Origin: Flectonema sp. DT1601
Lineage: Eukaryota
Length of the DNA: 64,000 nt
NCBI GenBank assembly: GCA_964019425.1
Contig: OZ025804.1
Span: 186,001 to 250,000, forward strand
Direction of reading: 5' to 3'
Of this stretch, positions 6,900 through 31,989 are shown piece after piece (positions within the stretch are counted from its first letter, which is position 1; each line of letters begins with the position of its first letter). Both the position numbers and the translations under genes were made by a program. The notes under the pieces are model-generated. The model searched no databases and was not told the DNA's origin. It worked only from the letters and a program-made list of their open reading frames with translations.

Positions 6900-7084
6900 G
6901 TGATATCCAAATGGTACCGTTGGTGCTGGTGTGCTGTGCGATGTCAAACCTGTTCAGTTTGCCATACATGTCACTTTGACAACTAAATGGGCATCGCTTG
7001 TGCCCAGTGACCCATCACCCTTCCTGACCATCGCTTGTGGTGAGGTTCCGGACTTTGGACCGGCGCATCGCGTGTGTGGTGGGC

Positions 7085-8115: not shown

Positions 8116-8555
8116 AGCTTTGATCTGCTAGTCACATACAGCAAGATCTCTGCTGGCAAGGTATCGCGAAGCTGCACTGTTACTCTTACGAGAGCTATGT
8201 GAATGAATTACCACAATAAACTGTAGAGAACGATAGGATTAACAAGCACCACCACTTCAACGATCACCACACATGCCTATCAACCCACCTGTGCTAGAAT
8301 AGTTCAGCAACCAAAAAGAATGAAACTGTAACAAGAGCTGGATTAAAGAGAACTTTAGTATTAACAACGGTGCATCATTGCAAAAACTTTGAAGAATGTG
8401 ATTGAGCTACTCAACAATCAGAAGCAATCGCGATGTTTTCGCAACATCGACATCGTCTCTCAGACTCGAGTCAAATATTTGGACCTGTACTTTGCTAAGT
8501 GTATTAATGAGCTTCAGAACAGTGAACGATACATGACATGAAGACTGGCAATGAT

Positions 8556-9417
8556 ACCTACCTAGGAGTGAATAAATCAACAGGGGATCCTTTTGGATCG
8601 GCCCTCCCTTCACTTCCGCTCTCCAACGGGGGGTCGCACCCCAGCCAATCGTCAGCGAAGAAAAGATTGCAAGGCATCGGCAAGCAATTTTTTCAAAACT
8701 TTGTGCGGAGCTGGCAGTTTTTAAGACTTCGTGGAGCTGGTGGTTTTTTAAAACTTTGCGAAGCTGGCGGTTTTTTGAAATGTGGAGCTGGCGGTTTTTA
8801 AAACTTTGTGTGGAGCTGGCAGTTTTTAAAACTTCGTGGAGCTGGTGGTTTTTTGAAATGTGGAGCTGGCGGTTTTTTAAAACTTTGTGTGGAGCTGGCA
8901 GTTTTTAAAACTTCGTGGAGCTGGTGGTTTTTTAAAACTTTGCGAAGCTGGCGGTTTTTTGAAATGTGGAGCTGGCGGTTTTTAAAACTTTGTGTGGAGC
9001 TGGCAGTTTTTAAAACTTCGTGGAGCTGGTGGTTTTTTAAAACTTTGCGAAGCTGGCGGTTATTTGAAATGTGGAGCTGGCGGTTTTTAAAACTTTGTGT
9101 GGAGCTGGCAGTTTTTAAAACTTCGTGGAGCTGGTGGTTTTTTGAAATGTAGAGCTGGCGGTTTTTTAAAACTTTGCCTGGAGCTGGCAGTTTTAAAATC
9201 TTTGTGGAGCTGGTGGCTCTTTGAAACTTTGTGTGGAGCTGGTAGTTTTTTGAAATGTGGAGCTGGTAGTTTTTTGAAATGTGGAGCTGGCGGTTTTTTA
9301 AAACTTAGTGTGGAGCTGGCAGTTTTTAAAACTTCGTGGAGCTGGATGTGGAGCTGGTGGTTTTTTAAAACTTTGTGTAGAAATTTTTTATTTTTTTTAT
9401 TTTCAGCTTAATTAAAA
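8556..9417 (-). mobile_element. Family D element: terminal TTTTG hairpin (8583-8608) followed by an internal satellite
   Basis: aggg-gatcc-tttt-ggatc-gg-ccctccc is homologous to the terminal hairpin of the other families. The element abuts family B copy 1. Boundaries are approximate. Confidence 0.5.
8693..9380. repeat. Minisatellite with a 24-29-bp unit GGAGCTGGYRGTTTTT(T)RAAA(CTTYG)TGT and ~105-bp higher-order period
   Basis: A tandem GAGCTGG core is visible. A four-monomer block recurs at about 8701, 8885 and 8990. Confidence 0.95.
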
Positions 9418-9817
9418 TTTCGATAAAGTGGGAAGTAACGGACTGGGAGCTTTTGGCTCCTGCCCTATTCCCGATGTAAACTTTCTTTTTATTTTTATTT
9501 TTTTTTTAACAGGCCCAAAGGGCGACAATGATGGTTGCTGACCAAGGAATAATATTCAAATGAATTTTCGTTTCAAAGAAACGAACAGAATTAAGAGAGA
9601 GGCAGAGGAAAAAAAAAAAAAAAAGAAAGAAAAGAAAAGAAAAAAAAAAATGAAGAGGAAATAATCAAACATGAAAAAAAAAAAAAAAAAAAATATATAT
9701 ATAAATAAAAAACGTTGTATGAAAAAGGAAAAAAAAGAAAAAAAAAAGACCAGAAAAGGAAAGAGAAAATGAAAAGGTATAATATTATTGTGGGGATATG
9801 AGGGATAGCAGGGAGAT

Positions 9818-9850
<33 letters not shown>

Positions 9851-10047
9851 CTTATTTATTATTTAAAAAAAGGAAACAATCAGTTTAGCGTCTCGATCAG
9901 GACGGAAAATAGAAATTAATCGACATAGTTGATCGATAGAAAAAAAAACTATGGTAACATTGTTTATTCATTTTTTTTTTTTTTTTTTTTTTTTAAATCT
10001 TTTTAATTATTTTAAAGAAAAAACAATCAGTTTAGCGTCTTGACCAG
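9418..10047 (-). mobile_element. Family B element, copy 1 (truncated, 630 bp)
   Basis: Begins TTTCGATAAAGTGGGAAGTAACGGACTGGGAGCTTTTGGCTCC. The same end occurs at 18226 (1-nt deletion) and, as reverse complement, ending at 27452. Confidence 0.85.
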
Positions 10048-10049
10048 CT

Positions 10050-10190
10050 ACAAACACAAAATACACACACAGCTTGCAGTGTGTTCTTTGTGTATGTTTT
10101 CTTCAGGTGTGAGTAGTTTTTTTGTTCTTGCTCTTCAGGGAGGGTCTTAGCCAAAAGCTAACAATCCAAATCTCACCTGGAAATTCAACT
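10050..10190 (+). mobile_element. Family A fragment, inverted (end-to-end with the copy starting at 10196; ~140-bp-arm palindrome)
   Basis: Reverse complement of 10196-10336 with a few mismatches; 5-nt spacer TGTAC. Confidence 0.9.
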
Positions 10191-10195
10191 TGTAC

Positions 10196-10474
10196 GAGTT
10201 AAGTTACCAGGTGAGATTTGGACTGTTAGCTTTTGGCTAAGGCCCTCCCTGAAGAGCAAGAACAAAAAAACTACTCACACCTGAAGAAAACATACACAAA
10301 GAACACACTGTAAGCTGTGTGTGTATTTTGTGTTTGTCACAACAGGAGAGAAAAGAAAGAATGTCAAGGTTGGTCACCTTGCCTATCAACGCACAACATT
10401 GGTGGTCTCTACTAGACCCTGAGTGATCCCACTGGATCTCTCATCGTTCATAGTACCTATGTGAAGTTATAAAG
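10196..10474 (-). mobile_element. Family A (1366-bp unit), first segment, interrupted by the 1280-bp array
   Basis: Near-identical to 28350-28629. The sequence resumes at 23349 (TCAAAGGTAAACTATGAAC). Confidence 0.9.
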
Positions 10475-13400
10475 AAAAAGAAATTTGGGAGAGGAATAGG
10501 GGCAGTGAACTTTTGATTCAGGCCCTTCCCAACGAACAGGACGAAGACTTCTAAAACCTGAGATGAACCAATTGAGTTGAAACAAACAAATAACAGAGAC
10601 GCAACACATACCGGAACATCATCGCAAGCAATGCTTCGGACCTCCGTCGACCTTCGTTCTTCCGGCGGCAAAGGGAAACAAGAAAGAACGGGCAATGAGA
10701 CAAACCTGTTAGTTGGTGTTGTGTTGTTGTTAAAAACAAAAACATAAACGCCAGGAAGTTCGACAACGAAGACATCGACATCGATCGCTGCTCTGCAGAT
10801 GTCCGGCGGGTGTTTGTCTACACTGTGTTTATTGTTTGTTTTTTTCCCAAGGTTCAACCCTGGGAAGAGAAGTAAAAAATTCCGTCAGTGTTGGCCTTCC
10901 TGTTCGAAGGTGCGCACCAATGACGATAAATAGAGTGGGGGGGAGAAAACCTTTGATCCAACTGGATCCCTTCACGAGCTGACATTGCCATGTGAAGTTA
11001 AATATTCTGGCGATGCCAGCTCAGGCGACTTAGCCTGCTTTTTTCTTTAAATAAAAAAAATAAAAAGATACCAACAGGTGGGGTGATGGGTTGCGCCACT
11101 GCAATCCAGTCACAAAAAGAAACAAAGGTAATCTCCAGGGTTCTCGACCCTTGGTTCTCCCTGCGCAAGCATCGCATGGAGGGTGACGCTAAGCACCCGG
11201 GGGGTACGAAACAAACTTTCCCCCTGCTGTCCTGTTTGAAATAAAAAAAAAAAAAAAAAAAAACAAAGGGATAGAAGTAAACAGAATACATTACACCTCA
11301 ACAGGTGACTCTAAACACCCAGGGGATACAAACCAAACTTTCCCCCTGTTGCCCTGTTTGAAATAAATTAAAAAAAGAACAAGAAAACAGAATACAATAC
11401 TCAGCAATCAGACTCGTTCACTCGCTTCGCCAGAGCCGTTCGAGCCGATGCTCATGTAAAGTTACCTGTTTTCTTTTAACAAATTAAATAAAATAAAATA
11501 AAAATAAAGTATACAAACCAAACTTTCCCTGGAATACAATACCTAACAATCAGTGCGTTCACTGGCCTTAGGGCTGTTCGGACTTATGCTTTGGACTGTT
11601 CCCTTGCAGAAAAAAAAAGTAAATAAACCAACTTTGGGACATTAGAAAAGCATAAAATAAAAGTTGCTACAACCAAAAGACAACTGCAAAAAATAAGGTT
11701 TTTGTAGGGGAGCTACAATGTAGCAATAATGTCACACAGTCATGTGGCGAGCTGAATAAGAAATTTGGGAGAGGAATAGGGGCAGTGAACTTTTGATTCA
11801 GGCCCTTCCCAACGAACAGGACGAAGACTTCTAAAACCTGAGATGAACCAATTGAGTTGAAACAAACAAATAACAGAGACGCAACACATACCGGAACATC
11901 ATCGCAAGCAATGCTTCGGACCTCCGTCGACCTTCGTTCTTCCGGCGGCAAAGGGAAACAAGAAAGAACGGGCAATGAGACAAACCTGTTAGTTGGTGTT
12001 GTGTTGTTGTTAAAAACAAAAACATAAACGCCAGGAAGTTCGACAACGAAGACATCGACATCGATCGCTGCTCTGCAGATGTCCGGCGGGTGTTTGTCTA
12101 CACTGTGTTTATTGTTTGTTTTTTTCCCAAGGTTCAACCCTGGGAAGAGAAGTAAAAAATTCCGTCAGTGTTGGCCTTCCTGTTCGAAGGTGCGCACCAA
12201 TGACGATAAATAGAGTGGGGGGGAGAAAACCTTTGATCCAACTGGATCCCTTCACGAGCTGACATTGCCATGTGAAGTTAAATATTCTGGCGATGCCAGC
12301 TCAGGCGACTTAGCCTGCTTTTTTCTTTAAATAAAAAAAATAAAAAGATACCAACAGGTGGGGTGATGGGTTGCGCCACTGCAATCCAGTCACAAAAAGA
12401 AACAAAGGTAATCTCCAGGGTTCTCGACCCTTGGTTCTCCCTGCGCAAGCATCGCATGGAGGGTGACGCTAAGCACCCGGGGGGTACGAAACAAACTTTC
12501 CCCCTGCTGTCCTGTTTGAAATAAAAAAAAAAAAAAAAAAAAACAAAGGGATAGAAGTAAACAGAATACATTACACCTCAACAGGTGACTCTAAACACCC
12601 AGGGGATACAAACCAAACTTTCCCCCTGTTGCCCTGTTTGAAATAAATTAAAAAAAGAACAAGAAAACAGAATACAATACTCAGCAATCAGACTCGTTCA
12701 CTCGCTTCGCCAGAGCCGTTCGAGCCGATGCTCATGTAAAGTTACCTGTTTTCTTTTAACAAATTAAATAAAATAAAATAAAAATAAAGTATACAAACCA
12801 AACTTTCCCTGGAATACAATACCTAACAATCAGTGCGTTCACTGGCCTTAGGGCTGTTCGGACTTATGCTTTGGACTGTTCCCTTGCAGAAAAAAAAAGT
12901 AAATAAACCAACTTTGGGACATTAGAAAAGCATAAAATAAAAGTTGCTACAACCAAAAGACAACTGCAAAAAATAAGGTTTTTGTAGGGGAGCTACAATG
13001 TAGCAATAATGTCACACAGTCATGTGGCGAGCTGAATAAGAAATTTGGGAGAGGAATAGGGGCAGTGAACTTTTGATTCAGGCCCTTCCCAACGAACAGG
13101 ACGAAGACTTCTAAAACCTGAGATGAACCAATTGAGTTGAAACAAACAAATAACAGAGACGCAACACATACCGGAACATCATCGCAAGCAATGCTTCGGA
13201 CCTCCGTCGACCTTCGTTCTTCCGGCGGCAAAGGGAAACAAGAAAGAACGGGCAATGAGACAAACCTGTTAGTTGGTGTTGTGTTGTTGTTAAAAACAAA
13301 AACATAAACGCCAGGAAGTTCGACAACGAAGACATCGACATCGATCGCTGCTCTGCAGATGTCCGGCGGGTGTTTGTCTACACTGTGTTTATTGTTTGTT

Positions 13401-16400
13401 TTTTTCCCAAGGTTCAACCCTGGGAAGAGAAGTAAAAAATTCCGTCAGTGTTGGCCTTCCTGTTCGAAGGTGCGCACCAATGACGATAAATAGAGTGGGG
13501 GGGAGAAAACCTTTGATCCAACTGGATCCCTTCACGAGCTGACATTGCCATGTGAAGTTAAATATTCTGGCGATGCCAGCTCAGGCGACTTAGCCTGCTT
13601 TTTTCTTTAAATAAAAAAAATAAAAAGATACCAACAGGTGGGGTGATGGGTTGCGCCACTGCAATCCAGTCACAAAAAGAAACAAAGGTAATCTCCAGGG
13701 TTCTCGACCCTTGGTTCTCCCTGCGCAAGCATCGCATGGAGGGTGACGCTAAGCACCCGGGGGGTACGAAACAAACTTTCCCCCTGCTGTCCTGTTTGAA
13801 ATAAAAAAAAAAAAAAAAAAAAACAAAGGGATAGAAGTAAACAGAATACATTACACCTCAACAGGTGACTCTAAACACCCAGGGGATACAAACCAAACTT
13901 TCCCCCTGTTGCCCTGTTTGAAATAAATTAAAAAAAGAACAAGAAAACAGAATACAATACTCAGCAATCAGACTCGTTCACTCGCTTCGCCAGAGCCGTT
14001 CGAGCCGATGCTCATGTAAAGTTACCTGTTTTCTTTTAACAAATTAAATAAAATAAAATAAAAATAAAGTATACAAACCAAACTTTCCCTGGAATACAAT
14101 ACCTAACAATCAGTGCGTTCACTGGCCTTAGGGCTGTTCGGACTTATGCTTTGGACTGTTCCCTTGCAGAAAAAAAAAGTAAATAAACCAACTTTGGGAC
14201 ATTAGAAAAGCATAAAATAAAAGTTGCTACAACCAAAAGACAACTGCAAAAAATAAGGTTTTTGTAGGGGAGCTACAATGTAGCAATAATGTCACACAGT
14301 CATGTGGCGAGCTGAATAAGAAATTTGGGAGAGGAATAGGGGCAGTGAACTTTTGATTCAGGCCCTTCCCAACGAACAGGACGAAGACTTCTAAAACCTG
14401 AGATGAACCAATTGAGTTGAAACAAACAAATAACAGAGACGCAACACATACCGGAACATCATCGCAAGCAATGCTTCGGACCTCCGTCGACCTTCGTTCT
14501 TCCGGCGGCAAAGGGAAACAAGAAAGAACGGGCAATGAGACAAACCTGTTAGTTGGTGTTGTGTTGTTGTTAAAAACAAAAACATAAACGCCAGGAAGTT
14601 CGACAACGAAGACATCGACATCGATCGCTGCTCTGCAGATGTCCGGCGGGTGTTTGTCTACACTGTGTTTATTGTTTGTTTTTTTCCCAAGGTTCAACCC
14701 TGGGAAGAGAAGTAAAAAATTCCGTCAGTGTTGGCCTTCCTGTTCGAAGGTGCGCACCAATGACGATAAATAGAGTGGGGGGGAGAAAACCTTTGATCCA
14801 ACTGGATCCCTTCACGAGCTGACATTGCCATGTGAAGTTAAATATTCTGGCGATGCCAGCTCAGGCGACTTAGCCTGCTTTTTTCTTTAAATAAAAAAAA
14901 TAAAAAGATACCAACAGGTGGGGTGATGGGTTGCGCCACTGCAATCCAGTCACAAAAAGAAACAAAGGTAATCTCCAGGGTTCTCGACCCTTGGTTCTCC
15001 CTGCGCAAGCATCGCATGGAGGGTGACGCTAAGCACCCGGGGGGTACGAAACAAACTTTCCCCCTGCTGTCCTGTTTGAAATAAAAAAAAAAAAAAAAAA
15101 AAACAAAGGGATAGAAGTAAACAGAATACATTACACCTCAACAGGTGACTCTAAACACCCAGGGGATACAAACCAAACTTTCCCCCTGTTGCCCTGTTTG
15201 AAATAAATTAAAAAAAGAACAAGAAAACAGAATACAATACTCAGCAATCAGACTCGTTCACTCGCTTCGCCAGAGCCGTTCGAGCCGATGCTCATGTAAA
15301 GTTACCTGTTTTCTTTTAACAAATTAAATAAAATAAAATAAAAATAAAGTATACAAACCAAACTTTCCCTGGAATACAATACCTAACAATCAGTGCGTTC
15401 ACTGGCCTTAGGGCTGTTCGGACTTATGCTTTGGACTGTTCCCTTGCAGAAAAAAAAAGTAAATAAACCAACTTTGGGACATTAGAAAAGCATAAAATAA
15501 AAGTTGCTACAACCAAAAGACAACTGCAAAAAATAAGGTTTTTGTAGGGGAGCTACAATGTAGCAATAATGTCACACAGTCATGTGGCGAGCTGAATAAG
15601 AAATTTGGGAGAGGAATAGGGGCAGTGAACTTTTGATTCAGGCCCTTCCCAACGAACAGGACGAAGACTTCTAAAACCTGAGATGAACCAATTGAGTTGA
15701 AACAAACAAATAACAGAGACGCAACACATACCGGAACATCATCGCAAGCAATGCTTCGGACCTCCGTCGACCTTCGTTCTTCCGGCGGCAAAGGGAAACA
15801 AGAAAGAACGGGCAATGAGACAAACCTGTTAGTTGGTGTTGTGTTGTTGTTAAAAACAAAAACATAAACGCCAGGAAGTTCGACAACGAAGACATCGACA
15901 TCGATCGCTGCTCTGCAGATGTCCGGCGGGTGTTTGTCTACACTGTGTTTATTGTTTGTTTTTTTCCCAAGGTTCAACCCTGGGAAGAGAAGTAAAAAAT
16001 TCCGTCAGTGTTGGCCTTCCTGTTCGAAGGTGCGCACCAATGACGATAAATAGAGTGGGGGGGAGAAAACCTTTGATCCAACTGGATCCCTTCACGAGCT
16101 GACATTGCCATGTGAAGTTAAATATTCTGGCGATGCCAGCTCAGGCGACTTAGCCTGCTTTTTTCTTTAAATAAAAAAAATAAAAAGATACCAACAGGTG
16201 GGGTGATGGGTTGCGCCACTGCAATCCAGTCACAAAAAGAAACAAAGGTAATCTCCAGGGTTCTCGACCCTTGGTTCTCCCTGCGCAAGCATCGCATGGA
16301 GGGTGACGCTAAGCACCCGGGGGGTACGAAACAAACTTTCCCCCTGCTGTCCTGTTTGAAATAAAAAAAAAAAAAAAAAAAAACAAAGGGATAGAAGTAA

Positions 16401-18225
16401 ACAGAATACATTACACCTCAACAGGTGACTCTAAACACCCAGGGGATACAAACCAAACTTTCCCCCTGTTGCCCTGTTTGAAATAAATTAAAAAAAGAAC
16501 AAGAAAACAGAATACAATACTCAGCAATCAGACTCGTTCACTCGCTTCGCCAGAGCCGTTCGAGCCGATGCTCATGTAAAGTTACCTGTTTTCTTTTAAC
16601 AAATTAAATAAAATAAAATAAAAATAAAGTATACAAACCAAACTTTCCCTGGAATACAATACCTAACAATCAGTGCGTTCACTGGCCTTAGGGCTGTTCG
16701 GACTTATGCTTTGGACTGTTCCCTTGCAGAAAAAAAAAGTAAATAAACCAACTTTGGGACATTAGAAAAGCATAAAATAAAAGTTGCTACAACCAAAAGA
16801 CAACTGCAAAAAATAAGGTTTTTGTAGGGGAGCTACAATGTAGCAATAATGTCACACAGTCATGTGGCGAGCTGAATAAGAAATTTGGGAGAGGAATAGG
16901 GGCAGTGAACTTTTGATTCAGGCCCTTCCCAACGAACAGGACGAAGACTTCTAAAACCTGAGATGAACCAATTGAGTTGAAACAAACAAATAACAGAGAC
17001 GCAACACATACCGGAACATCATCGCAAGCAATGCTTCGGACCTCCGTCGACCTTCGTTCTTCCGGCGGCAAAGGGAAACAAGAAAGAACGGGCAATGAGA
17101 CAAACCTGTTAGTTGGTGTTGTGTTGTTGTTAAAAACAAAAACATAAACGCCAGGAAGTTCGACAACGAAGACATCGACATCGATCGCTGCTCTGCAGAT
17201 GTCCGGCGGGTGTTTGTCTACACTGTGTTTATTGTTTGTTTTTTTCCCAAGGTTCAACCCTGGGAAGAGAAGTAAAAAATTCCGTCAGTGTTGGCCTTCC
17301 TGTTCGAAGGTGCGCACCAATGACGATAAATAGAGTGGGGGGGAGAAAACCTTTGATCCAACTGGATCCCTTCACGAGCTGACATTGCCATGTGAAGTTA
17401 AATATTCTGGCGATGCCAGCTCAGGCGACTTAGCCTGCTTTTTTCTTTAAATAAAAAAAATAAAAAGATACCAACAGGTGGGGTGATGGGTTGCGCCACT
17501 GCAATCCAGTCACAAAAAGAAACAAAGGTAATCTCCAGGGTTCTCGACCCTTGGTTCTCCCTGCGCAAGCATCGCATGGAGGGTGACGCTAAGCACCCGG
17601 GGGGTACGAAACAAACTTTCCCCCTGCTGTCCTGTTTGAAATAAAAAAAAAAAAAAAAAAAAACAAAGGGATAGAAGTAAACAGAATACATTACACCTCA
17701 ACAGGTGACTCTAAACACCCAGGGGATACAAACCAAACTTTCCCCCTGTTGCCCTGTTTGAAATAAATTAAAAAAAGAACAAGAAAACAGAATACAATAC
17801 TCAGCAATCAGACTCGTTCACTCGCTTCGCCAGAGCCGTTCGAGCCGATGCTCATGTAAAGTTACCTGTTTTCTTTTAACAAATTAAATAAAATAAAATA
17901 AAAATAAAGTATACAAACCAAACTTTCCCTGGAATACAATACCTAACAATCAGTGCGTTCACTGGCCTTAGGGCTGTTCGGACTTATGCTTTGGACTGTT
18001 CCCTTGCAGAAAAAAAAAGTAAATAAACCAACTTTGGGACATTAGAAAAGCATAAAATAAAAGTTGCTACAACCAAAAGACAACTGCAAAAAATAAGGTT
18101 TTTGTAGGGGAGCTACAATGTAGCAATAATGTCACACAGTCATGTGGCGAGCTGAATAAGAAATTTGGGAGAGGAATAGGGGCAGTGAACTTTTGATTCA
18201 GGCCCTTCCCAACGAACAGGACGAA
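10475..18225 (-). repeat. Family C: head-to-tail array of a 1280-bp non-coding unit, part 1 (~6 copies)
   Basis: Sequence and ORF track recur exactly every 1280 bp (10998, 12278, 13558, 14838, 16118, 17398). Confidence 0.97.
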
Positions 18226-18618
18226 TTTCGATAAGTGGGAAGTAACGGACTGGGAGCTTTTGGCTCCTGCCCTATTCCCGACGTAAACTTTCTTTTTATT
18301 TTTTTTTTTTTTTTAACAGGCCCAAAGGGCGACAATGATGGTTGCTGACCAAGGAATAATATTCAAATGAATTTTCGTTTCAAAGAAACGAACAGAATTA
18401 AGAGAGAGGTAGAGAAAAAAAAAAAAAAAAAAAAAAAGAAAGAATAGAAAAAAAATATGAAGAGGAAATAATCAAACATGAAAAAAAAAAAAAAAAATAA
18501 AATATAAATAAAAAACGTTGTATGAAAAAGGAAAAAAAGAAAAAAAAAAGACCAGAAAAGGAAAGAGAAAATGAAAAGGTATAATATTATTGTGGGGATA
18601 TGAGGATAGCAGGGAGAT

Positions 18619-18656
<38 letters not shown>

Positions 18657-18909
18657 TTATTATTTAAAAAAAGGAAACAATCAGTTTAGCGTCTCGATCA
18701 GGACGGAAAATAGAAATTAATCGACATAGTCGATCGATAGAAAAAAAACAATGATAACATTGTTTATTCCTTTTTTTTTTTTTTTTTTTTATTCTTTTTA
18801 TTTATTTTTAAAGAAAAAACAATCAGTTTAGCGTCCTGACCAGGACGGAAAATTGAAAGTGATCCACATAGTCGATCGATAGAAAAAAGACAATGATAAC
18901 ATTGTTTAT

Positions 18910-18942
<33 letters not shown>

Positions 18943-19334
18943 CTTTTAATTATTTTAAAGAAAAAACAATCAGTTTAGCGTCTTGACCAGGACGGAAAAT
19001 AGAAAGTGATCGACATAGTCGATCGATAAAAAACAATGATAACATTGTTTATTCCTTTTTTTTTTCTTTTTTTTTTATTCTTTTTATTTATTTTTAAAGA
19101 AAAAACAATCAGTTTAGCGTCCTGACCAGGACGGAAAATAGAAAGTAATCGACATAGTCGATCGATAAAAAAAAAACAATGATAACATTGTTTATTCCTT
19201 TTTTTTTTCTTTTTTTTTATTCTTTTTATTTATTTTTAAAGAAAAAACAATCAGTTTAGCGTCCTGACCAGGACGGAAAATTGAAAGTGATCGACATAGT
19301 CGATCGATAAAAAAACAATGATAACATTGTTTAT

Positions 19335-19365
<31 letters not shown>

Positions 19366-20139
19366 CCTTTTAATTATTTTTTAAAGAAAAAACAATCAGT
19401 TTAGCGTCTTGACCAGGACGGAAAATAGAAAGTGATCGACATAGTCGATCGATAAAAAACAATGATAACATTGTTTATTCTTTTTTTTTTTTTTTTTTTT
19501 TTTTAATCCTTTTTATTATTTTAAAGAAAAAACAATCAGTTTAGCGTCTTGACCAGGACGGAAAATAGAAAGTGATCGACATAGTCGATCGATAAAAAAA
19601 CAATGATAACATTGTTTATTCTTTTTTTTTTTTTTTTTTTAAATTCTTTTTATTTATTTTTAAAGAAAAAAAACGGAAAATAAAAATTAGTCGACAAAGT
19701 CGAACGATAAAAAAAAACAATGATAACATTGTTTATTCTTTTTTTTTTTGTTTTTTTTTATATTCTTTTTTATTAATTTTGAAAAAAAAACAATCAGTTT
19801 AGCGTCTTGACCAGGACGGAAAATAGAAAGTAATCGACATAGTCGATCGATAAAAAAAACAATGATAACATTGTTTACTCTTTTTTTTTTTTTTTTTTAA
19901 ATTCTTTTTATTTTAAAAAGAAAAAAAACGGAAAATAGAAATTAGTCAACAAAGTCGAACGATAAAAAAAAAAACAATGATAACATTGTTTATTCTTTTT
20001 TTTTTATTTTTTTTTTTATATTCTTTTTTATTAATTTTGAAAAAAAAAACAATCAGTTTAGCGTCTTGACCAGGACGGAAAATAGAAAGTGATCGACATA
20101 GTCGATCGATAAAAAAAAAACAATGATAACATTGTTTAT

Positions 20140-20176
<37 letters not shown>

Positions 20177-21606
20177 CTTTTTTTTTTTTTAAAGAAAAAA
20201 CAATCAGTTTAGCGTCTTGACCAGGACGGAAAATAGAAAGTAATCGACATAGTCGATCGATAAAAAAAACAATGATAACATTGTTTATTCTTTTTTTTTT
20301 TTTTTTTAAATCTTTTTATTTATTTTTTAAAAAGAAAAAAAAAAAACGGAAAATAGAAATTAGTCAACAACGTCGAACGATAAAAAAAAAAACAATGATA
20401 ACATTGTTTATTCTTTTTTTTTTTATTTTTTTTTGTATTCTTTTTTATTAATTTTGAAAAAAAAACAATCAGTTTTGCGTCTTGACCAGGACGGAAAATA
20501 GAAAGTGATCGACATAGTCGATCGATAAAAAAACAATGATAACATTGTTTATTCTTTTTTTTTTTTTTTTTTTTTTTAAATCCTTTTTATTATTTTTAAA
20601 GAAAAAACAATCAGTTTAGCGTCTTGACCAGGACGAAAAATAGAAAGTGATCGACATAGTCGATCGATAAAAAAACAATGATAACATTGTTTATTCTTTT
20701 TTTTTTTTTTCTTCTTTTTTTTAAATCCTTCTTTTTATTTTTTAAAGAAAAAACAATCAGTTTAGCGTCTTGACCAGGACGGAAAATAGAAAGTAATCGA
20801 CATAGTCGATCGATAAAATAAAAACAATGATAACATTGTTTATTCCTTTTTTTTTTTTTTTTATTCTTTTTATTTATTTTTAAAGAAAAAAACGGAAAAT
20901 AGAAAGTAATCGACATAGTCGATCGATAAAAAAACAATGATAACATTGTTTATTCTTTTTTTTTTTTTTTTTTTTTTAAATTCTTTTTATTTATTTTTTA
21001 AGAAAAAAACGGAGAATAGAAATTAGTCGACAAAGTCGAACGATAAAAAAACAATGATAACATTGTTTATTCTTTTTTTTATTTTTTTTTTTATATTCTT
21101 TTTTATTAATTTTGAAAAAAAAAAAAAAACAATCAGTTTAGCGTCTTGACCAGGACGGAAAATAGAAAGTAATCGACATAGTCGATCGATAAAAATACAA
21201 TGATAACATTGTTTAATCTTTTATAATTTTTTATTTTTTTTTTTGTTTTAAAAAAAAAAAAAAAAAACAAGCGGAATTGATCATAATGGGTGGTAGGGGT
21301 TGTTATAACTTCGTTTGAAAATTCTTCTTTTTTGATTTCTTTTTTTTTTTCTTTTTACAGGAGTTAAGATCACTTTCAGGAGACAACACATTAACAAGAG
21401 CAGCAAGCAGAGTTGACACTATCAATTCAAATTTGAAATACCGGGAATTAATTTACAAGGAGGTATCTCAAGTGACTTGGTATCTCTAGCGTGTCGGTAT
21501 CTCTGGAGTGCTGGTATCTCGTATGTGCGTTGGTATCTCATGAGTGATGGTATCTCTTGTGCATTAGAGAAACGAAAAAGAATGTCATGACCATGACGGA
21601 AGAATT
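18226..21606 (-). mobile_element. Family B element, copy 2 (3381 bp), inserted into a family C unit without TSD
   Basis: The host sequence ...GGACGAA|GACTTCTAAAACC... is split exactly at 18225/21607. The element contains ~19 subrepeats of ~142/~115 bp and six GGTATCTC motifs. Confidence 0.9.
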
Positions 21607-23348
21607 GACTTCTAAAACCTGAGATGAACCAATTGAGTTGAAACAAACAAATAACAGAGACGCAACACATACCGGAACATCATCGCAAGCAATGCTTCGG
21701 ACCTCCGTCGACCTTCGTTCTTCCGGCGGCAAAGGGAAACAAGAAAGAACGGGCAATGAGACAAACCTGTTAGTTGGTGTTGTGTTGTTGTTAAAAACAA
21801 AAACATAAACGCCAGGAAGTTCGACAACGAAGACATCGACATCGATCGCTGCTCTGCAGATGTCCGGCGGGTGTTTGTCTACACTGTGTTTATTGTTTGT
21901 TTTTTTCCCAAGGTTCAACCCTGGGAAGAGAAGTAAAAAATTCCGTCAGTGTTGGCCTTCCTGTTCGAAGGTGCGCACCAATGACGATAAATAGAGTGGG
22001 GGGGAGAAAACCTTTGATCCAACTGGATCCCTTCACGAGCTGACATTGCCATGTGAAGTTAAATATTCTGGCGATGCCAGCTCAGGCGACTTAGCCTGCT
22101 TTTTTCTTTAAATAAAAAAAATAAAAAGATACCAACAGGTGGGGTGATGGGTTGCGCCACTGCAATCCAGTCACAAAAAGAAACAAAGGTAATCTCCAGG
22201 GTTCTCGACCCTTGGTTCTCCCTGCGCAAGCATCGCATGGAGGGTGACGCTAAGCACCCGGGGGGTACGAAACAAACTTTCCCCCTGCTGTCCTGTTTGA
22301 AATAAAAAAAAAAAAAAAAAAAAACAAAGGGATAGAAGTAAACAGAATACATTACACCTCAACAGGTGACTCTAAACACCCAGGGGATACAAACCAAACT
22401 TTCCCCCTGTTGCCCTGTTTGAAATAAATTAAAAAAAGAACAAGAAAACAGAATACAATACTCAGCAATCAGACTCGTTCACTCGCTTCGCCAGAGCCGT
22501 TCGAGCCGATGCTCATGTAAAGTTACCTGTTTTCTTTTAACAAATTAAATAAAATAAAATAAAAATAAAGTATACAAACCAAACTTTCCCTGGAATACAA
22601 TACCTAACAATCAGTGCGTTCACTGGCCTTAGGGCTGTTCGGACTTATGCTTTGGACTGTTCCCTTGCAGAAAAAAAAAGTAAATAAACCAACTTTGGGA
22701 CATTAGAAAAGCATAAAATAAAAGTTGCTACAACCAAAAGACAACTGCAAAAAATAAGGTTTTTGTAGGGGAGCTACAATGTAGCAATAATGTCACACAG
22801 TCATGTGGCGAGCTGAATAAGAAATTTGGGAGAGGAATAGGGGCAGTGAACTTTTGATTCAGGCCCTTCCCAACGAACAGGACGAAGACTTCTAAAACCT
22901 GAGATGAACCAATTGAGTTGAAACAAACAAATAACAGAGACGCAACACATACCGGAACATCATCGCAAGCAATGCTTCGGACCTCCGTCGACCTTCGTTC
23001 TTCCGGCGGCAAAGGGAAACAAGAAAGAACGGGCAATGAGACAAACCTGTTAGTTGGTGTTGTGTTGTTGTTAAAAACAAAAACATAAACGCCAGGAAGT
23101 TCGACAACGAAGACATCGACATCGATCGCTGCTCTGCAGATGTCCGGCGGGTGTTTGTCTACACTGTGTTTATTGTTTGTTTTTTTCCCAAGGTTCAACC
23201 CTGGGAAGAGAAGTAAAAAATTCCGTCAGTGTTGGCCTTCCTGTTCGAAGGTGCGCACCAATGACGATAAATAGAGTGGGGGGGAGAAAACCTTTGATCC
23301 AACTGGATCCCTTCACGAGCTGACATTGCCATGTGAAGTTAAATATTC
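21607..23348 (-). repeat. Family C 1280-bp array, part 2 (~1.4 copies; ~7.4 units in total)
   Basis: Continues the interrupted unit and ends at TGTGAAGTTAAATATTC. Confidence 0.95.
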
Positions 23349-23534
23349 TCAAAGGTAAACTATGAACTACAAATGACTTAGCCTGTTATTATAATGCCAC
23401 AGGCAGGCCCTGCATTCAGCAGCTATCCAGCAGTGCTTGGATGTCCTGATCTTCTTCTAAAAAAAAGAAAGAAAAACAAAACTGTAGCTGGGATCACTCA
23501 GGATCAACAGACTACCAATGCTACCTGTTGTACT
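23349..23534 (-). mobile_element. Family A, second segment
   Basis: Matches 28631-28816 and is interrupted at 23534 by family B copy 3. Confidence 0.9.
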
Positions 23535-26500
23535 ATCATTCATTTTAATTTTCACTGTTTCCCATCTACATTTTATTTTCAAATAGTTCCGGTCTGTCTC
23601 TGATGATAAATAAAACTGATCATGTTAACTCAATTTTTTTTTTATTATGTGCAAGAGATACCAACACGCAAGAGATACCAACGCACATACGAGATACCAG
23701 CACTTCCGAGATACCGACACACAAGAGATACCAAGACACTTAAGATACCAGCAAGGACAGTGAGAGGTAGAATGAACTCTCCTCCTTGTGTCCGATCCTG
23801 ATTATTTTTTGTTGAATTGGTAGTGTTACCTCATTTTGCTACTCTCGTATCTGTGTTGTGTTAACTCATGTAAGTGATCTTAACTCCTGTTAAATAAAAA
23901 AAAAAAAATTTCAAAAAAAAAGAAATTAAAAAAGAAGAATTTTCAAATGAAGTTATATCAACCCCTGCCACCCATTATGATCAATTCCGCTTGTTTTTTT
24001 TTTTTTTTTTTTTCTTCTTTCTTTTCTTCAAATATAAAAAAAAATTAAAAAATATAAAAGATGAAACAATGTTATCATTGTTTTTTTTATCGATCGACTA
24101 TGTCGATTACTTCCAGTTTTCCGTCCTGGTCAAGACGCTAAACTGATTGTTTTTTTTTTTTTTTTTTAAAAAATTAATAAAAAGAATATAAAAAAAAAAA
24201 AAAAAGAATAAACAATGTTATCATTGTTTTTTTTTATCGTTCGACTCTGTCGACTAATTTCTATTTTCCGTTTCTTTTCTTTAAATAATAAATAAAAATA
24301 ATTTAAAATAAAAAAAAGGAATAAACAATGTTATCATTGTTTTTTTATCGATCGACTATGTCGATTACTTTCTATTTTCCGTCCTGGTCAAGACGCTAAA
24401 CTGATTGTTTTTTTTTTCAAAATTAATAAAAAAGAATATTAAAAAAAAAAAAAAAAAAAAAAAAGAATAAACAATGTTATCATTGTTTTTTTTTATTGTT
24501 CGACTTTGTTGACTAATTTCTATTTTCCGTTTTTTTTCTTTAAAAAATAAATAAAAAGAATTTAAAATAAAAAAAAAGAATAAACAATGTTATCATTGTT
24601 TTTTTATCGATCGACTATGTCGATCACTTTCTATTTTCCGTCCTGGTCAAGACGCTAAACTGATTGTTTTTTTTTCAAAATTAATAAAAAAAAAAAAAAA
24701 AAAAAGAATAAACAATGTTATCATTGTTTTTTTTATCGTTCGACTTTGTTGACTAATTTCTATTTTCCGTTTTTTTTCTTTAAAAAATAAATAAAAAGAT
24801 TTTAAATAAAAAAAAAGAATAAACAATGTTATCATTGTTTTTTTATCGATCGACTATGTCGATCACTTTCTATTTTCCGTCCTGGTCAAGACGCTAAACT
24901 GATTGTTTTTTTTTTCAAAATTAATAAAAAAGAATATAAAAAAAAAAAAAAAAAAGAATAAACAATGTTATCATTGTTTTTTTTTTATCGTTCGACTTTG
25001 TCGACTAATTTCTATTTTCCGTTTCTTTTCTTTAAAGAATAAATAAAAAGAATTTAAAATAAAAAAAAAGAATAAACAATGTTATCATTGTTTTTTTATC
25101 GATCGACTATGTCGATCACTTTCTATTTTCCGTCCTGGTCAAGACGCTAAACTGATTGTTTTTTTTTTTTCAAAATTAATAAAAAAGAATATAAAAAAAA
25201 AAAAAAAAAAGGAAAAACAATGTTATCATTGTTTTTTTTTTATCGTTCGACTTTGTCGACTAATTTCTATTTTCCGTTTCTTTTCTTTAAAGAATAAATA
25301 AAAAGAATTTAAAATAAAAAAAAAGAATAAACAATGTTATCATTGTTTTTTTTTATCGATCGACTATGTCGATCACTTTCTATTTTCCGTCCTGGTCAAG
25401 ACGCTAAACTGATTGTTTTTTTTTTTTCAAAATTAATAAAAAAGAATATAAAAAAATACAAAAAAAAGAATAAACAATGTTATCATTGTTTTTTTTTTTA
25501 TCGTTCGACTTTGTCGACTAATTTCTATTTTCCGTTTTTTTTTTCTTTAAAAAATAAATAAAAAGAATCTAAAATAAAAAAAAAGAATAAACAATGTTAT
25601 CATTGTTTTTTTATCGATCGACTATGTCGATCACTTTCTATTTTCCGTCCTGGTCAAGACGCTAAACTGATTGTTTTTTTTTTTTTTCAAAATTAATAAA
25701 AAAGAATATTAAAAAAAATACAAAAAAAAAAAGAATAAACAATGTTATCATTGTTTTTTTTTTTATCGTTCGACTTTGTCGACTAATTTCTATTTTCCGT
25801 TTTTTTTCTTTAAAAAATAAATAAAAAGAATTTAAAATAAAAAAAAAGAATAAACAATGTTATCATTGTTTTTTTTTATCGATCGACTATGTCGATTACT
25901 TTCTATTTTCCGTCCTGGTCAAGACGCTAAACTGATTGTTTTTTTTTTCAAAATAAAAAAAATATTAAAAAAAAAAAATAAAAAAAAAGAATAAACAATG
26001 TTATCATTGTTTTTTTTTATCGTTCGACTTTGTTGACTAATTTCTATTTCCGTTTTTTTTTCTTTAAAAAATAAATAAAAAGAATTTAAAAAAAAAAAAA
26101 AAAAAAAGAATAAACAATGTTATCATTGTTTTTTTTATCGATCGACTATGTCGATTACTTTCTATTTTCCGTCCTGGTCAAGACGCTAAACTGATTGTTT
26201 TTTTTTTCAAAATAAAAAAAATATTAAAAAAAAAAAAATAAAAAAAAGAATAAACAATGTTATCATTGTTTTTTTTTTATTGTTCGACTTTGTTGACTAA
26301 TTTCTATTTTCCGTTTTTTTTTCTTTAAAAAATAAATAAAAAGAATTTAAAAAAAAAAAAAAAAAAAAGAATAAACAATGTTATCATTGTTTTTTTTATC
26401 GATCGACTATGTCGATTACTTTCTATTTTCCGTCCTGGTCAAGACGCTAAACTGATTGTTTTTTTTTCAAAATAAAAAAAAAATATTAAAAAAAAAAAAT

Positions 26501-27452
26501 AAAAAAAAAGAATAAACAATGTTATCATTGTTTTTTTTTATCGTTCGACTTTGTTGACTAATTTCTATTTTCCGTTTTTTTTCTTTAAAAAAATTAATAA
26601 AAAGAATTTAAAAAAAAAAAAAAAAAGAATAAACAATGTTATCATTGTTTTTTTTATCGATCGACTATGTCGATTACTTTCTATTTTCCGTCCTGGTCAA
26701 GACGCTAAACTGATTGTTTTTTCTTTAAAAATAAATAAAAAGAATAAAAAAAAAAAAAAAGGAATAAACAATGTTATCATTGTTTTTTTTTTATCGATCG
26801 ACTATGTCGATTACTTACTATTTTCCGTCCTGGTCAAGACGCTAAACTGATTGTTTTTTCTTTAAAATAATTAAAAAGATTTAAAAAAAAAAAAAAAAAA
26901 AAAAAATGAATAAACAATGTTATCATTGTTTTTTTTTCTATCGATCAACTATGTCGATTAATTTCTATTTTCCGTCCTGATCGAGACGCTAAACTGATTG
27001 TTTCCTTTTTTTAAATAATAAATAAGAAAAAAAAAAAAAAAAAAAAAAAAGAGCATCTCCCTGCTATCCCTCATATCCCCACAATAATATTATACCTTTT
27101 CATTTTCTCTTTCCTTTTCTGGTCTTTTTTTTTTCTTTTTTTTCCTTTTTCATACAACGTTTTTTATTTATATATATATTTTTTTTTTTTTTTTTTTTTC
27201 ATGTTTGATTATTTCCTCTTCATTTTTTTTTTCTTTTCTTTTCTTTCTTTTTTTTTTTTTTTCCTCTGCCTCTCTCTTAATTCTGTTCGTTTCTTTGAAA
27301 CGAAAATTCATTTGAATATTATTCCTTGGTCAGCAACCATCATTGTCGCCCTTTGGGCCTGTTAAAAAAAAATAAAAATAAAAAGAAAGTTTACATCGGG
27401 AATAGGGCAGGAGCCAAAAGCTCCCAGTCCGTTACTTCCCACTTTATCGAAA
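23535..27452 (+). mobile_element. Family B element, copy 3 (~3.9 kb), opposite orientation, inserted into a family A unit
   Basis: The intact target CTACCTGTTGTACT-TG-CTCACTATGG (28803-28828) is split with loss of 2 bp. The element has ~23 subrepeats alternating ~142/~115 bp and ends ...CCCACTTTATCGAAA. Confidence 0.9.
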
Positions 27453-29998
27453 CTCACTATGGGGGGTGATGCCAAACACCCAGAAGTACTTAACTACTTT
27501 CCTTCTTGCTGCCCAGGAGTTTCTGACCAGAACTAATAGAAAATAAAAAGTAGATGGGAAACAATAAAAAGTAAAATGGATATAACTGAAGTTAAACAAG
27601 ACAAATGAAGTAACAGACCAGAACAGAAAGAGGATTGTAATAGAAGATTACAAATAAAAAAATGCAAGTATCAACACATAATCAAGATACACCAGCAGCT
27701 AACAAACAACATAAAATTGAAGATCAGTTGCCAGAGTATTTCAACCATGGTAGAATACTCGCCCCTCTGGCAGGGATTATCCCAGACTTGTCCTTTAATT
27801 TAGTTGGACACCATGGCTTACAACCCTTCCAGAGGGAAGCACCATTATGACTTCTATTTTTTTTCTTCAAGAAAATCATAAGGTGGTAACAAAGAAAAAT
27901 GCTAAGAGGAACCCCTTATTAACACCTAAGACATCTAAACTGCAGCCCAGCTTATGCCCAATGCACTAACAGGTCATTCCCTCACACTCAGATCAAAAAA
28001 TCAAAGTTCAGAGTGCATCTTAGCGTGAATGAGAGAATTTCCTCCCGCTTTTTTTGAACAAAAGGGATAGGAGAAGGGATAGAAAACGAACATAAAAATA
28101 AAATTTTAAGTGAGAAACACTTAGCAGAAATACTTAGCAGCTTTTAAGGAGCTGAAAAGCAAAAAAAAAATCTAAGTGAGAAACACTTAGTAGTAACACT
28201 TTGTAGCTAATTGAGCTGAAAATAAAAAAATAAAAAATTTCTAAGTGAGAGATACTTAGCAACTTTTAGAACAAATAATTAAGTAAATAACCTGTTGAAA
28301 TGGTAGTTAATGTAACCATTACAGGTTTGATGCCAAAACTGACAAAGAATGAGTTAAGTTACCAGGTGAGATTTGGACTGTTAGCTTTTGGCTAAGGCCC
28401 TCCCTGAAGAGCAAGAACAAAAAAACTACTCACACCTGAAGAAAACATACACAAAGAACACACTGTAAGCTGTGTGTGTATTTTGTGTTTGTCACAACAG
28501 GAGAGAAAAGAAAGAATGTCAAGGTTGGTCACCTTGCCTATCAACGCACAACATTGGTGGTCTCTACTAGACCCTGAGTGATCCCACTGGATCTCTCATC
28601 GTTCATAGTACCCTGTGTGAAGTTATAAAATCAAAGGTAAACTATGAACTACAAATGACTTAGCCTGTTATTATAATGCCACAGGCAGGCCCTGCATTCA
28701 GCAACTATCCAGCAGTGCTTGGATGTCCTGATCTTCTTCTAAAAAAAAGAAAGAAAAACAAAACTGTAGCTGGGATCACTCAGGATCAACAGACTACCAA
28801 TGCTACCTGTTGTACTTGCTCACTATGGGGGGTGATGCCAAACACCCAGAAGTACTAAACTACTTTCCTTCTTGCTGCCCAGGAGTTTCTGACCAGAACT
28901 AATAGAAAATAAAAAGTAGATGGGAAATAATAAAAAGTAAAATGGATATAACTGAAGTTAAACAAGACAAATGAAGTAACAGACCAGAACAGAAAGAGAA
29001 TTGTAATAGAAGATTACAAATAAAAAAATGCAAGTATCAACACATGATCAGGATACACCAGCAGCTAACAAACAACATAAAATTGAAGATCAGTTGCCAG
29101 AGTATTTCAACCATGGTAGAATACTCGCCCCTCTGGCAGGGATTATCCCAGACTTGTCCTTTAATTTAGTTGGACACCATGGCTTACAACCCTTCCAGAG
29201 GGAAGCACCATTATGACTTCTATTTTTTTTCTTCAAGAAAATCATAAGGTGGTAACAAAGAAAAATGCTAAGAGGAACCCCTTATTAACACCTAAGACAT
29301 CTAAACTGCAGCCCAGCTTATGCCCAATGCACTAACAGGTCATTCCCTCACACTCAGATCAAAAAATCAAAGTTCAGAGTGCATCTTAGCATGAATGAGA
29401 GAAATTTCTCATCGCTTTTTTTGAACAAAAGGGATAGAAGAGGGGATAGAAAACGAACATAACAATAAAATTCTAAGTGAGAAACACTTAGCAGAAACAC
29501 TTAGCAGCTTTTAAGGAGCTGAAAAGCAAAAAAAAAAATCTAAGTGAGAAACACTTAGTAGAAACAATTTGTAGCTAATTAAGCTGAAAATAAAAAAATA
29601 AAAAATTTCTAAGTGAGAAATACTTAGCAACTTTTAGAACAAACATTTCAGTAAATAACCTGTAATGATTAAACCGTTACAGGTTTGATGCCAAGACTGA
29701 CAAGGACTGAGTTGAATTTACCAGGTGAGATTTGGACTGTTAGCTTTTGGCTAAGGCCCTCCCTGAAGAGCAAGAACAAAAAAACTACTCACACCTGAAG
29801 AAAACATACACAAAGAACACACTGTAAGCTGTGTGTGTATTTTGTGTTTGTCACAACAGGAGAGAAAAGAAACAATGTCAAGGTTGGTCACCTTGCCTAT
29901 CAACGCACAACATTGGTGGTCTCTACTAGACCCTGAGTGATCCCACTGGATCTCTCAGGGTAAACTATGAACTACAAATGACTTAGCCTGTTATTATA
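27453..29998 (-). repeat. Family A head-to-tail array, ~1366-bp period (slightly diverged copies)
   Basis: Duplicate ORFs start at 27662 and 29028. The unit start GAGTTRARTT(T)ACCAGG occurs at ~28350 and ~29709. Each unit has three CTAAGTG-AGAAA-CACTTAG-type hairpins. Confidence 0.93.
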
Positions 29999-30430
29999 GC
30001 TACAAATTGTTTCTACTAAGTGTTTCTCACTTAGATTTTTTTTTTGCTTTTCAGCTCCTTAAAAGCTGCTAAGTATTTCTACTACTGCAACTGCCTGCGG
30101 CATTATAATAACAGGCTAAGTCATTTGTAGTTCATAGTTTACCTTTGATTTTATAACTTCACACAGGGTACTATGAACGATGAGAGATCCAGTGGGATCA
30201 CTCAGGGTCTAGTAGAGACCACCAATGTTGTGCGTTGATAGGCAAGGTGACCAACCTTGACATTCTTTCTTTTCTCACCTGTTGTGACAAACACAAAATA
30301 CACACACAGCTTACAGTGTGTTCTTTGTGTATGTTTTCTTCAGGTGTGAGTAGTTTTTTTTGTTCTTGCTCTTCAGGGAGGGCCTTAGCCAAAAGCTAAA
30401 AGTCCAAATCTCACCTGGTAACTCAACTCA
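29999..30430 (+). mobile_element. Inverted family A fragments (29999-30080 and 30091-30430)
   Basis: Reverse complements of ~29495-29576 and ~28349-28689. The second fragment ends at the same fixed terminus (...CTCACCTGGTAACTCAACTCA). Confidence 0.9.
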
Positions 30431-30481
30431 CCAGAAAGCAGCAAAAAATTAACCGTCCAGTCGGTCTTTCTTTTTCTTTGG

Positions 30482-31290
30482 CTTGTGTGTTGTGGTGCAG
30501 GGGATATAGGCAATCTTTTTGAGATCGGCCTTCCCTTTCCACATTGTCATGGAGCGTCTTCATCCATCATCTCCAATCGATACCGCTCTGTGTGAATGCG
30601 GCAAGCGGTGAGAAGGAAACAAAGAAGTAATGGTGCCAACCTGTTTGATGTGTTTGTTTTTGGCTAAGGTCAACCGCAAAGTCACACAGAGACATCGAAG
30701 AATCAGCGTCATCGCTGGCGCTCCATGCATGTTGCAATGTGGCAACAGCCCTCCGTCCCTCATCTGCACTATGTTTGTGAGCGCAGAACAGCCTCTTCTC
30801 ACCTGTCATCCAGCGCATCATCCATATCATCCCGATGTGTGCTTAGCGGCCAGCAGCAGGAAAGAAGCAAAGTAGTAAGTGTTCAAACCTGTTTTGTTGT
30901 GTTTATTGTTGGCAATTTAGGCCGCACAAGTCACACATAGGGATCGGTGGTGCCTGCTTCTACAGTGGCGGTGTCTGTCTTGTCACATTGTAGTGACAGC
31001 CCCTGTCCTTCCTCTACACTCGCATGTCACGATGCGGAGTGGACCGATCTCTTCTCAGATGCACCTGGTCATGGCTTAAGGGCTGTGAAGTTTAAAAATC
31101 TGCCAGCCATGACCCAGTTGTCTTACACTGCTGTCTCAGGACGAGCCAGGCTTAGGCTGCAACTGATCCAAAAGGACAAGTGCACCTCATCGGTCCTCTC
31201 CAAAACGCCTCGCAACACGCATATGTGTATCAGGAGAGGGGTTCCTGCTCTGTCAAAAAAAAAAGGAAGCTGAGATGTGTGGTCAGTTTA
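30482..31290 (-). mobile_element. Family E: old diverged relative of families C and A
   Basis: Terminal hairpin gggga..ggc-a-atct-ttttg-agat-cg-gcc-ttccc at 30500-30535. The internal motifs (C/A)AACCTGTT and GACATCGA are shared with the 1280-bp unit. Boundaries are approximate. Confidence 0.5.
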
Positions 31291-31343
31291 GAGTCATGAC
31301 AGGACTACAACGAGACTCAAAGCAAAAACAGATACTGGAATAT

Positions 31344-31696
31344 GGGTTAAGTTGCCAGGTGAGATTTGGACTGTTGGCTTTTGGCTAAGGCCCTCCCTGA
31401 AAAGCAAGAACAAAATAACTACTCGCACCTGAAGAAAACATACACAAAGAAGACATATACAAGTCCATCGCATCGCTTGCTGAACCTCCATCGATCTGCT
31501 TCCATCGTCCCTTGGCAAAAACAGGTAACGGAAAAAAAAAAGCAAGACAAACAATGCCAGGACAACGGAAGCATCGATATTGCTCCAGCAGATGCGAGTA
31601 CCTGTAAGCTGTGTGTGTATTTTGTGTTTGTTACAACAGGAGAGAAAAGAAAGAATGTCAAGGTTGGTCACCTTGCCTATCAACGCACAACATTGG
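31344..31696 (-). mobile_element. Family A-like copy retaining a central segment homologous to the 1280-bp unit
   Basis: Starts GGGTTAAGTTGCCAGGTGAGATTTGG. Segment 31460-31600 (ACCTCCATCGATC...GCCAGGACAACGGAAGCATCGATATTGCTCCAGCAGATG) is missing from family A but aligns by eye to family C. Confidence 0.75.
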
Positions 31697-31989
31697 CGTC
31701 CAAACTGATTGTTTCTTTTTTATAAAAAAAAAAGGGGATCCAATAAGTATGGCTCGAGAATCGAATTGAGAACGAGAGATAACAGTGTTGTTGTAAGAAA
31801 GCATGAAATTTGTAGGCGGTCAGTATTACCAAGATTTTTAGATGAAAAGCCCACCTTCATGTAACGAAAATTGAACCCATGTCGATTTTAATTGTAAAGG
31901 AAAGAATGTCGCAAAAGCGGCTAAAAAGATTTAATTTTGTTTGGGATTTAACATTTTATCTACAGAACCAGATCCACAGGTCCGCTTGT

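Follow-up and report, generated by a model that had tools for sequence, protein, structure and literature searches.

Protein-less repeats sharing a terminal hairpin in a diplonemid genome: candidate non-autonomous mobile elements with Penelope-like anatomy

The stretch of DNA considered here, positions 186,001 to 250,000 of contig OZ025804.1 of Flectonema sp. DT1601 (64,000 nucleotides, hereafter the window), has genes with introns that encode a flagellar calcium-binding protein, FEN1, SRP54 and malate dehydrogenase, and carries a cluster of nested repeats at 8540-31700. The repeats fall into families called A, A', B, C, D and E and share a small hairpin, which reads CAAAA in its loop on one strand, near one end of the element. 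Because the malate dehydrogenase is nearest to diplonemid proteins (73% identity to Diplonema papillatum and 77% to a cluster with Rhynchopus euleeides, against at most 57% to kinetoplastids), the host is, by this protein comparison, a diplonemid. Our analysis suggests that the repeats are young, dispersed non-autonomous elements working like non-autonomous Penelope-type ones, and so supports an original prediction, made from the letters of the window, of non-autonomous mobile elements with a hairpin acting on the CAAAA strand.

Architecture of the repeat cluster

The nested structure of 9418-30430 was resolved by self-comparison of the window, and its members, like the neighbouring D, E and A', lie on the minus strand unless stated otherwise. 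A chain of A units starts at a fixed end at 10196 with the head of a first unit (10196-10473, hairpin 10226-10240), which continues at 23350-23534 and closes with a tail at 27453-28349; these pieces match the second unit at 1322 of 1351 bases. The second unit is complete (28350-29707, 1358 bp, hairpin loop at 28386) and the third truncated (29708-29998). An inverted internal A piece with a short filler (29997-30090, plus strand) lies between two variable ends, and an inverted truncated A copy of 340 nt (30091-30430, plus strand), with its fixed end at 30430, closes the chain. Inside the first A unit stands a head-to-tail chain of C units of 1280 bp. Its first part (10474-18225) holds 6.06 units, of which five out of six are identical and the sixth differs by one base; its second part (21607-23349) holds 1.36 units and has its variable end at the counterpart, by homology, of the A insertion site. 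The two parts are separated by a second copy of B (18226-21606, 3381 bp, with an internal 142-bp satellite), placed in a C unit with nothing lost or duplicated. At 21597-21609 this copy ends in GAATT, and the GA of the target after it would read as the beginning of another TGAG; the copy may be an almost exact monomer. A third B copy with a diverged tail is inserted in inverted sense in the first A unit (23535-27456, plus strand); its fixed end shares CTCA with the target and its variable end carries about 60-75 nt of A-like filler. In all, the A chain comprises 2.2 units and the interrupted C chain 7.4.

To the left of the A chain lies family D (8540-9377, start approximate), where the hairpin (8586-8599) is followed by a short-period tandem array and the variable end is met by an inverted 37-nt internal piece of the A unit (9378-9414, plus strand). 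Next comes the first B copy (9418-10049, about 630 nt, hairpin 9446-9460), with its fixed end at 9418, 4 nt short of TGAG; it meets an inverted A copy of 141 nt (10050-10190, plus strand, fixed end 10190) variable end to variable end. The hairpin ends face outward in this B/A pair (9418-10190) as in the A chain (10196-30430), and short inverted or same-sense A or B pieces are present at four variable ends. On the other side of the chain are family E (30485-31342, start approximate, hairpin 30513-30525, body homologous to C), a copy of A', which is a longer form of A that retains a segment also present in C (31343-31700, with 35 nt of inverted B satellite after it), and an old E-like fragment without hairpin (33230-33381, plus strand, z-score 30). 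D and E occur as single copies, so that their ends, including the fixed end of D, cannot be mapped.

The original prediction counted at least five unrelated-looking families, which proved too many. The bodies of A, A', C and E are collinear (local alignments reach z-scores of 7 for A-C, 9 for A'-C and 15 for C-E, with 303 of 453 aligned bases identical between A and C), and this alignment evidence makes A, C and E divergent homologues. B and D, which both hold internal satellites, have only about 30 nt of head in common with the other families, the head of D resembling that of E over 30 nt. The lineages number three at most: A/C/E, B and D.

The hairpin and the ends of the copies

All five hairpins of the prediction were located, that of C at 10506-10520 and the others as given above. 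A hairpin descriptor matches 18 sites with a CAAAA loop in the window, and D is a 19th that needs a relaxed loop; the 19 sites are confined to 8594-31383, against an expectation per 64 kb, from 100 shuffles, of 0.01 with the strict and 0.13 with the relaxed loop. As the descriptor was composed once D and E had been seen, it is no blind test for these two. A covariance model built from eight A, B and C copies recovered 17 out of 17 A/B/C sites with E-values of at most 6e-12, plus one chance match. Read on the CAAAA strand, the A/B/C alignment has 71 of 72 cells paired and double changes in four of nine pairs; when D and E are added, 46 of the 50 cells of the upper stem are paired and all five pairs show changes on both sides, against only 21-49% paired in slid controls. 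One double change arises within family A, in the copy at 10050-10190. The hairpin itself is real. Its covariation, counted over about five lineages, is suggestive and amounts to neither a phylogeny-corrected test nor a test of significance.

G·U wobble favours the CAAAA strand at three positions, one pair being G·U in seven of the eight A/B/C rows. The compensatory stems and the mismatches turning into G-U pairs on that strand, both noted beforehand, were thus borne out, as was the reverse orientation ascribed to the copy at 31374, where wobble favours the opposite strand. Folding energies of the hairpins give no strand preference, and the candidate outer pairing between a G-rich stretch and CCC differs in register family by family. 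A second small palindrome, GATCC-3/4 nt-GGATC, is conserved in A (10425-10440) and at the corresponding place of C units (e.g. 10955-10970), and its stem is the same as that of the D hairpin. Beyond the window, tight and exact hairpin patterns found 0 matches in viral contigs and 0 in metagenome contigs. A loose pattern gave 25 matches in metagenome contigs, in none of which the three free stem pairs are all Watson-Crick, and one in viral contigs (three of three pairs), within a coding frame of a helicase-bearing RNA-virus-like fragment; none has DNA similarity to the window, and all are taken as chance.

The copies have one fixed and one variable end. Counted from TGAG, TGGG or TGAA, 36-38 nt off the loop, the end next to the hairpin has offsets of 0, 0, +1, +1 (or +5), +2, +4, +4 and 0-4 at eight window junctions, the flank of A' being of unknown origin. 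The arrangement anticipated for these ends is supported, and the seven junctions listed at the outset were correct within 1-4 nt. Two junctions from outside the window agree: a 75-nt B end placed in a C unit (run X1), and protein P0180, an A frame terminating in EFR-stop, i.e. the translation of the fixed end of B (three residues only). At the other end, copy lengths in the window are 141, 340, about 358, 630, 3381 and about 3920 nt, besides mid-unit ends. Proteins P0155, P0174 and P0178, from other contigs, break at nearly one CCATGG site of the A unit (27815-27818 / 29181-29184), where variable ends might form preferentially.

Three insertion sites could be rebuilt, with 0, 1-2 and 2 nt lost and a duplication in none of the three; they share no common target, and the true 5' ends of the monomers are uncertain. 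A scan of 5000-34000 and of single A and C units with Rfam gave no match at gathering level. The hammerhead core (no stem II) and twister loop motifs do not form in the units. The junctions, the three sites and the ribozyme scans agree with the earlier description of the repeats as devoid of poly(A), target duplication, hammerhead and CTRR end.

Neighbouring remnants and copies on other contigs

Broken frames for reverse transcriptase (RT) and RNase H lie on either side of the cluster, at 31733-32889 (plus strand) and 5849-6133 (minus strand), and match diplonemid and trypanosomatid proteins. From annotation names and a weak hepadnaviral RNase H match, we take them to be of VIPER type. The RNase H match is in line with PMC6681497. 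Intact relatives of 929 amino acids are found on other contigs. In a cluster of 11 such RT proteins, five reach the normal C-terminus and six are cut: four end in A, C or B sequence, one has an unmatched tail and one no tail. The proteins concerned run into internal points of A (16/16 and 6/7 residues), C (10/11) and B (12/12), with the same stop each time. A 23-mer is common to 30431-30453 (plus strand, in the flank of the inverted A copy) and 6780-6802 (minus strand, upstream of a VIPER-type remnant), and may be part of a VIPER terminal repeat.

A marker made of a 62-residue chance frame of A has 70 variants, and its two window forms occur on 71 and 62 contigs, the largest of 1.45 Mb, counts which could come from more than one assembly; 3 of 15 A-marker proteins among the matches listed are cut short. 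When chance frames were searched by exact sequence, 5 of 20 were present in the protein collection, and none leads to a long protein. The families are young and widely dispersed. Sixteen sequencing runs of 12 studies share words with 28351-31700; they include no RNA run and have no bearing on expression. In the seven runs compared, A fills a closed contig of 1387 nt (X1) and C one of 1280 nt (X3), the C cycle of 1382 nt in run X1 carries the inserted B hairpin end mentioned above, and A contigs of X3 and X4 end at most 2 nt from 10196. A closed contig may equally represent a free circle or derive from a tandem chain, and these contigs are presumably molecules of this organism that strayed into other libraries. 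The seven runs contain no long piece of E, of the A' flanks or of the VIPER remnant, although gaps in them prove nothing.

Further features touch the repeats less directly. At 7085-8033 (minus strand), two overlapping frames of 235 and 107 amino acids without Pfam or Atlas match run up to a simple-repeat tract and may belong to a further decayed element, and the frame 7241-7792 likewise has no Atlas match. A Twister-P1-like segment at 7008-7091 (minus strand; 25.7 bits for a gathering threshold of 67.2, E-value 0.0017 in 301 bases) has the core loops and P1, P2 and P4, with a 22-nt insert, and stands after a simple-repeat tract and ahead of a VIPER-type remnant. A tandem pair of near-identical intron-bearing genes for the flagellar calcium-binding protein occupies 60969-63234 (plus strand).

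Candidate mechanisms and known systems

On balance we consider it probable that the repeats, which are protein-less, are copied by an RT supplied in trans, which would bind the hairpin on a CAAAA-strand RNA. That this partner is of Penelope type is a sizeable possibility, somewhat short of an even chance; another diplonemid RT of the kind without long terminal repeats (non-LTR) would be less likely. DNA synthesis would start about 35 nt downstream of the hairpin, with a chromosomal 3' end as the primer and 0-4 nt of microhomology to the target; from the spread of the fixed end over a few bases and the TG or TGAG shared with targets, we infer that priming fits better than nick-and-join. The template would be a multimer or a circle, because the chains run from the fixed end to a point inside a unit, and inverted copies and fillers could arise if the other strand is primed in turn or by a template jump. 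A single enzyme would serve A, B and C, since they form a mixed B/A inverted pair and share the TGAG/TGAA end.

The original prediction held that the repeats fit no known class cleanly, which understates the resemblance. They show 5' truncation with a conserved 3' end, head-to-tail tandems and an inverted truncated copy at the 5' end (30091-30430, and 10050-10190 against B), an anatomy described in hammerhead-less Penelope-type elements and the non-autonomous MRC1 (Craig et al. 2021, sections 9 and 15). Inverted repeats, palindromic junctions and copies without duplication are likewise documented (PMC3846280). The way in which Penelope-type elements pick their 3' end and form tandem or inverted copies is described as unresolved (Craig et al. 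2021, section 15).

A number of observations weigh against copying of this kind. Membership in the Penelope group is not established because the partner enzyme is missing: neither an RT nor a GIY-YIG nor any other partner linked with the hairpin was found in the window, where the sole RT remnants are VIPER-type and without hairpin. A frame at 32890-33204 (plus strand, 100 amino acids at 32905-33207), beside the old E-like fragment, was rejected as a partner protein, having no longer homologue and no Atlas match; one of its three matches is informative, a 117-amino-acid protein at 47% identity (E-value 1e-6), whose GGFL-hydrophobic stretch presumably recalls Polinton/adenovirus core proteins. 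The search by covariance model proposed earlier succeeded in the window for all A/B/C sites and missed both D and E at an E-value of up to 10. G·T pairs form in DNA too, so that wobble tells the strand and not RNA. The optional 30-40 bp tail is absent, the outer ends of the A chain lie within 1 nt of each other (one insertion unit), and microsatellite targeting is not seen. C units are perfect through long A runs, where RT slippage would be expected; later DNA-level amplification or assembly polishing could explain this. Literature searches gave no diplonemid Penelope-type element, one of them returning only PMC12278014, with the terms in unrelated places, and seven supplements of PMC10161547, the repeat supplement not among them, hold none either. 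A literature search for retroplasmids found nothing.

The best surviving alternative, which we regard as unlikely, is that the repeats are rolling-circle DNA transposons of non-autonomous type, similar to Helitron2/Helentron or to Replitron. An HUH enzyme would nick at TGAG by the hairpin and peel off one strand, and a missed stop would yield chains and variable far ends. The repeats resemble Helitron2 and Helentron in lacking a target duplication, in their subterminal hairpin, in their tandem arrays, the chains being perfect, and in the satellites inside B and D. Helitrons and Helentrons are marked by a 5' TC with a 3' CTRR, or by exact insertion at T|T or A|T. Neither signature is present here. 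For the former, TC/CTAG is the form given in PMC12001565, which also reports tandem Helitron arrays of 2-7 monomers of up to 2 kb and minisatellite-filled Helitron2 copies; Helitron-like open reading frames are recorded in D. papillatum (PMC10161547), and Replitron-1 has one fuzzy end (PMC10288648). However, the hairpin of Replitron lies at the fuzzy end and here at the fixed one. The fixed end moreover wanders by 0-5 nt, 0-2 nt are lost without a common target dinucleotide, no terminal or subterminal inverted repeat appears among the best five longest inverted pairs per region, and inverted pairs with fillers would be unexpected.

A second alternative, improbable in our view, makes the repeats parasites, comparable to SIRE of Trypanosoma cruzi, of a VIPER-type tyrosine-recombinase retrotransposon, whose RT would copy their RNAs, sometimes as VIPER-element chimeras, the complementary DNA being integrated or captured at breaks. 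The cluster indeed lies between VIPER remnants, young intact VIPER-type RT genes occur in the same contig set, VIPER makes no target duplication (PMC12278014), and the four of six cut VIPER members that end in A, B or C sequence all have the CAAAA strand in the VIPER sense. Yet this agreement of four in four is weak, as a reverse insertion can stop at once and be missed; A' and E face opposite to the neighbouring VIPER pieces, and plain nesting in repeat-rich DNA accounts for the association. The remnants, whose 3' ends are missing, share neither split direct repeats nor the hairpin with the elements, and integration by a recombinase would be expected to give precise full-length ends.

Still less probable is the nuclear capture of free small DNA circles, mitochondrial chromosomes or plasmids, with the hairpin as replication origin and the fixed end as its nick or start: closed contigs of 1280-1387 nt are known from other runs, D. 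papillatum has more than 1400 mitochondrial insertions including 11 whole circles (PMC10161547), and Namystynia mitochondrial circles share GGGCCAAAAA/TTTTGGGCC motifs (PMC7049700), but a tandem chain yields a closed contig equally, circles should break at random rather than at one fixed site, mobility is evident from the B end that every unit of one C cycle carries as an insertion, and known diplonemid mitochondrial circles measure 2-12 kb and combine a constant region with a unique cassette (PMC7049700, PMC5658414). A diplonemid mitochondrial chromosome was rejected in its own right, the units being of 1.28-1.36 kb and homologous along their length; gene modules were not searched for. Priming on telomere repeats was dismissed too, with one TAACCC at the A' end only and no arrays in the window.

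If copying by a trans-acting RT is retained, a bolder version of it, which we advance as doubtful, is a ribozyme-free system of circular or multimeric RNA retroelements, new to Euglenozoa and with an undescribed RT. Lineages of 1.3-kb units would then keep in common only a hairpin that sets an internal start for the RT, itself either a deep member of the Penelope-like enzymes or the VIPER RT, which is hepadnavirus-related, acting without its recombinase, and the units would roll into long chains and prey on one another and on VIPER. Repeats, many of them of unknown origin, make up half of diplonemid genomes (PMC10161547). The covarying hairpin, set at a constant distance from the end in several diverged families, offers a concrete cis-signal and a handle on the enzyme, and young dispersed families are likely to be active mutagens in this species.

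Set against known systems, the repeats show several partial likenesses. Stringent pairs of long and short interspersed nuclear elements (LINE/SINE) are said to combine different bodies with a shared 3' stem-loop, a fixed 3' end and a variable 5' end. The repeats are alike in stem-loop and ends but form long chains and have no tRNA head, no poly(A) or repeat tail and no duplication; a tRNA-derived SINE or ingi-type retroposon was accordingly rejected. SIRE of trypanosomatids is, like them, a non-coding euglenozoan element without duplication that is found beside VIPER (PMC6681497); SIRE consists of the VIPER A2-B2 repeats, an identity not seen here, where truncation is moreover variable. Metazoan non-LTR retrozymes are also protein-less tandem monomers, from dimers up to multimers, for which an RNA circle and a Penelope-type RT have been proposed (PMC7229834; bioRxiv 10.64898/2026.07.22.740005), with units of 150-450 bp instead of at least 1.3 kb. 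Because no ribozyme was found, the type I hammerhead of each retrozyme unit being absent by Rfam scans (core motif without stem II), the repeats are not retrozymes as defined in PMC7229834 and in the bioRxiv preprint. The closest likeness of anatomy is with Chlamys and the Penelope-like MRC1 of Chlamydomonas, which share chains, 5' truncation and inverted copies with the repeats (Craig et al. 2021). Diplonemids are not among the hosts listed for Chlamys in section 9 of that work, and its 30-40 bp tail and microsatellite targeting have no counterpart in the window; this kind of element would extend to diplonemids. Compared with MRC1, no autonomous partner was found, and several diverged lineages keep one covarying hairpin.

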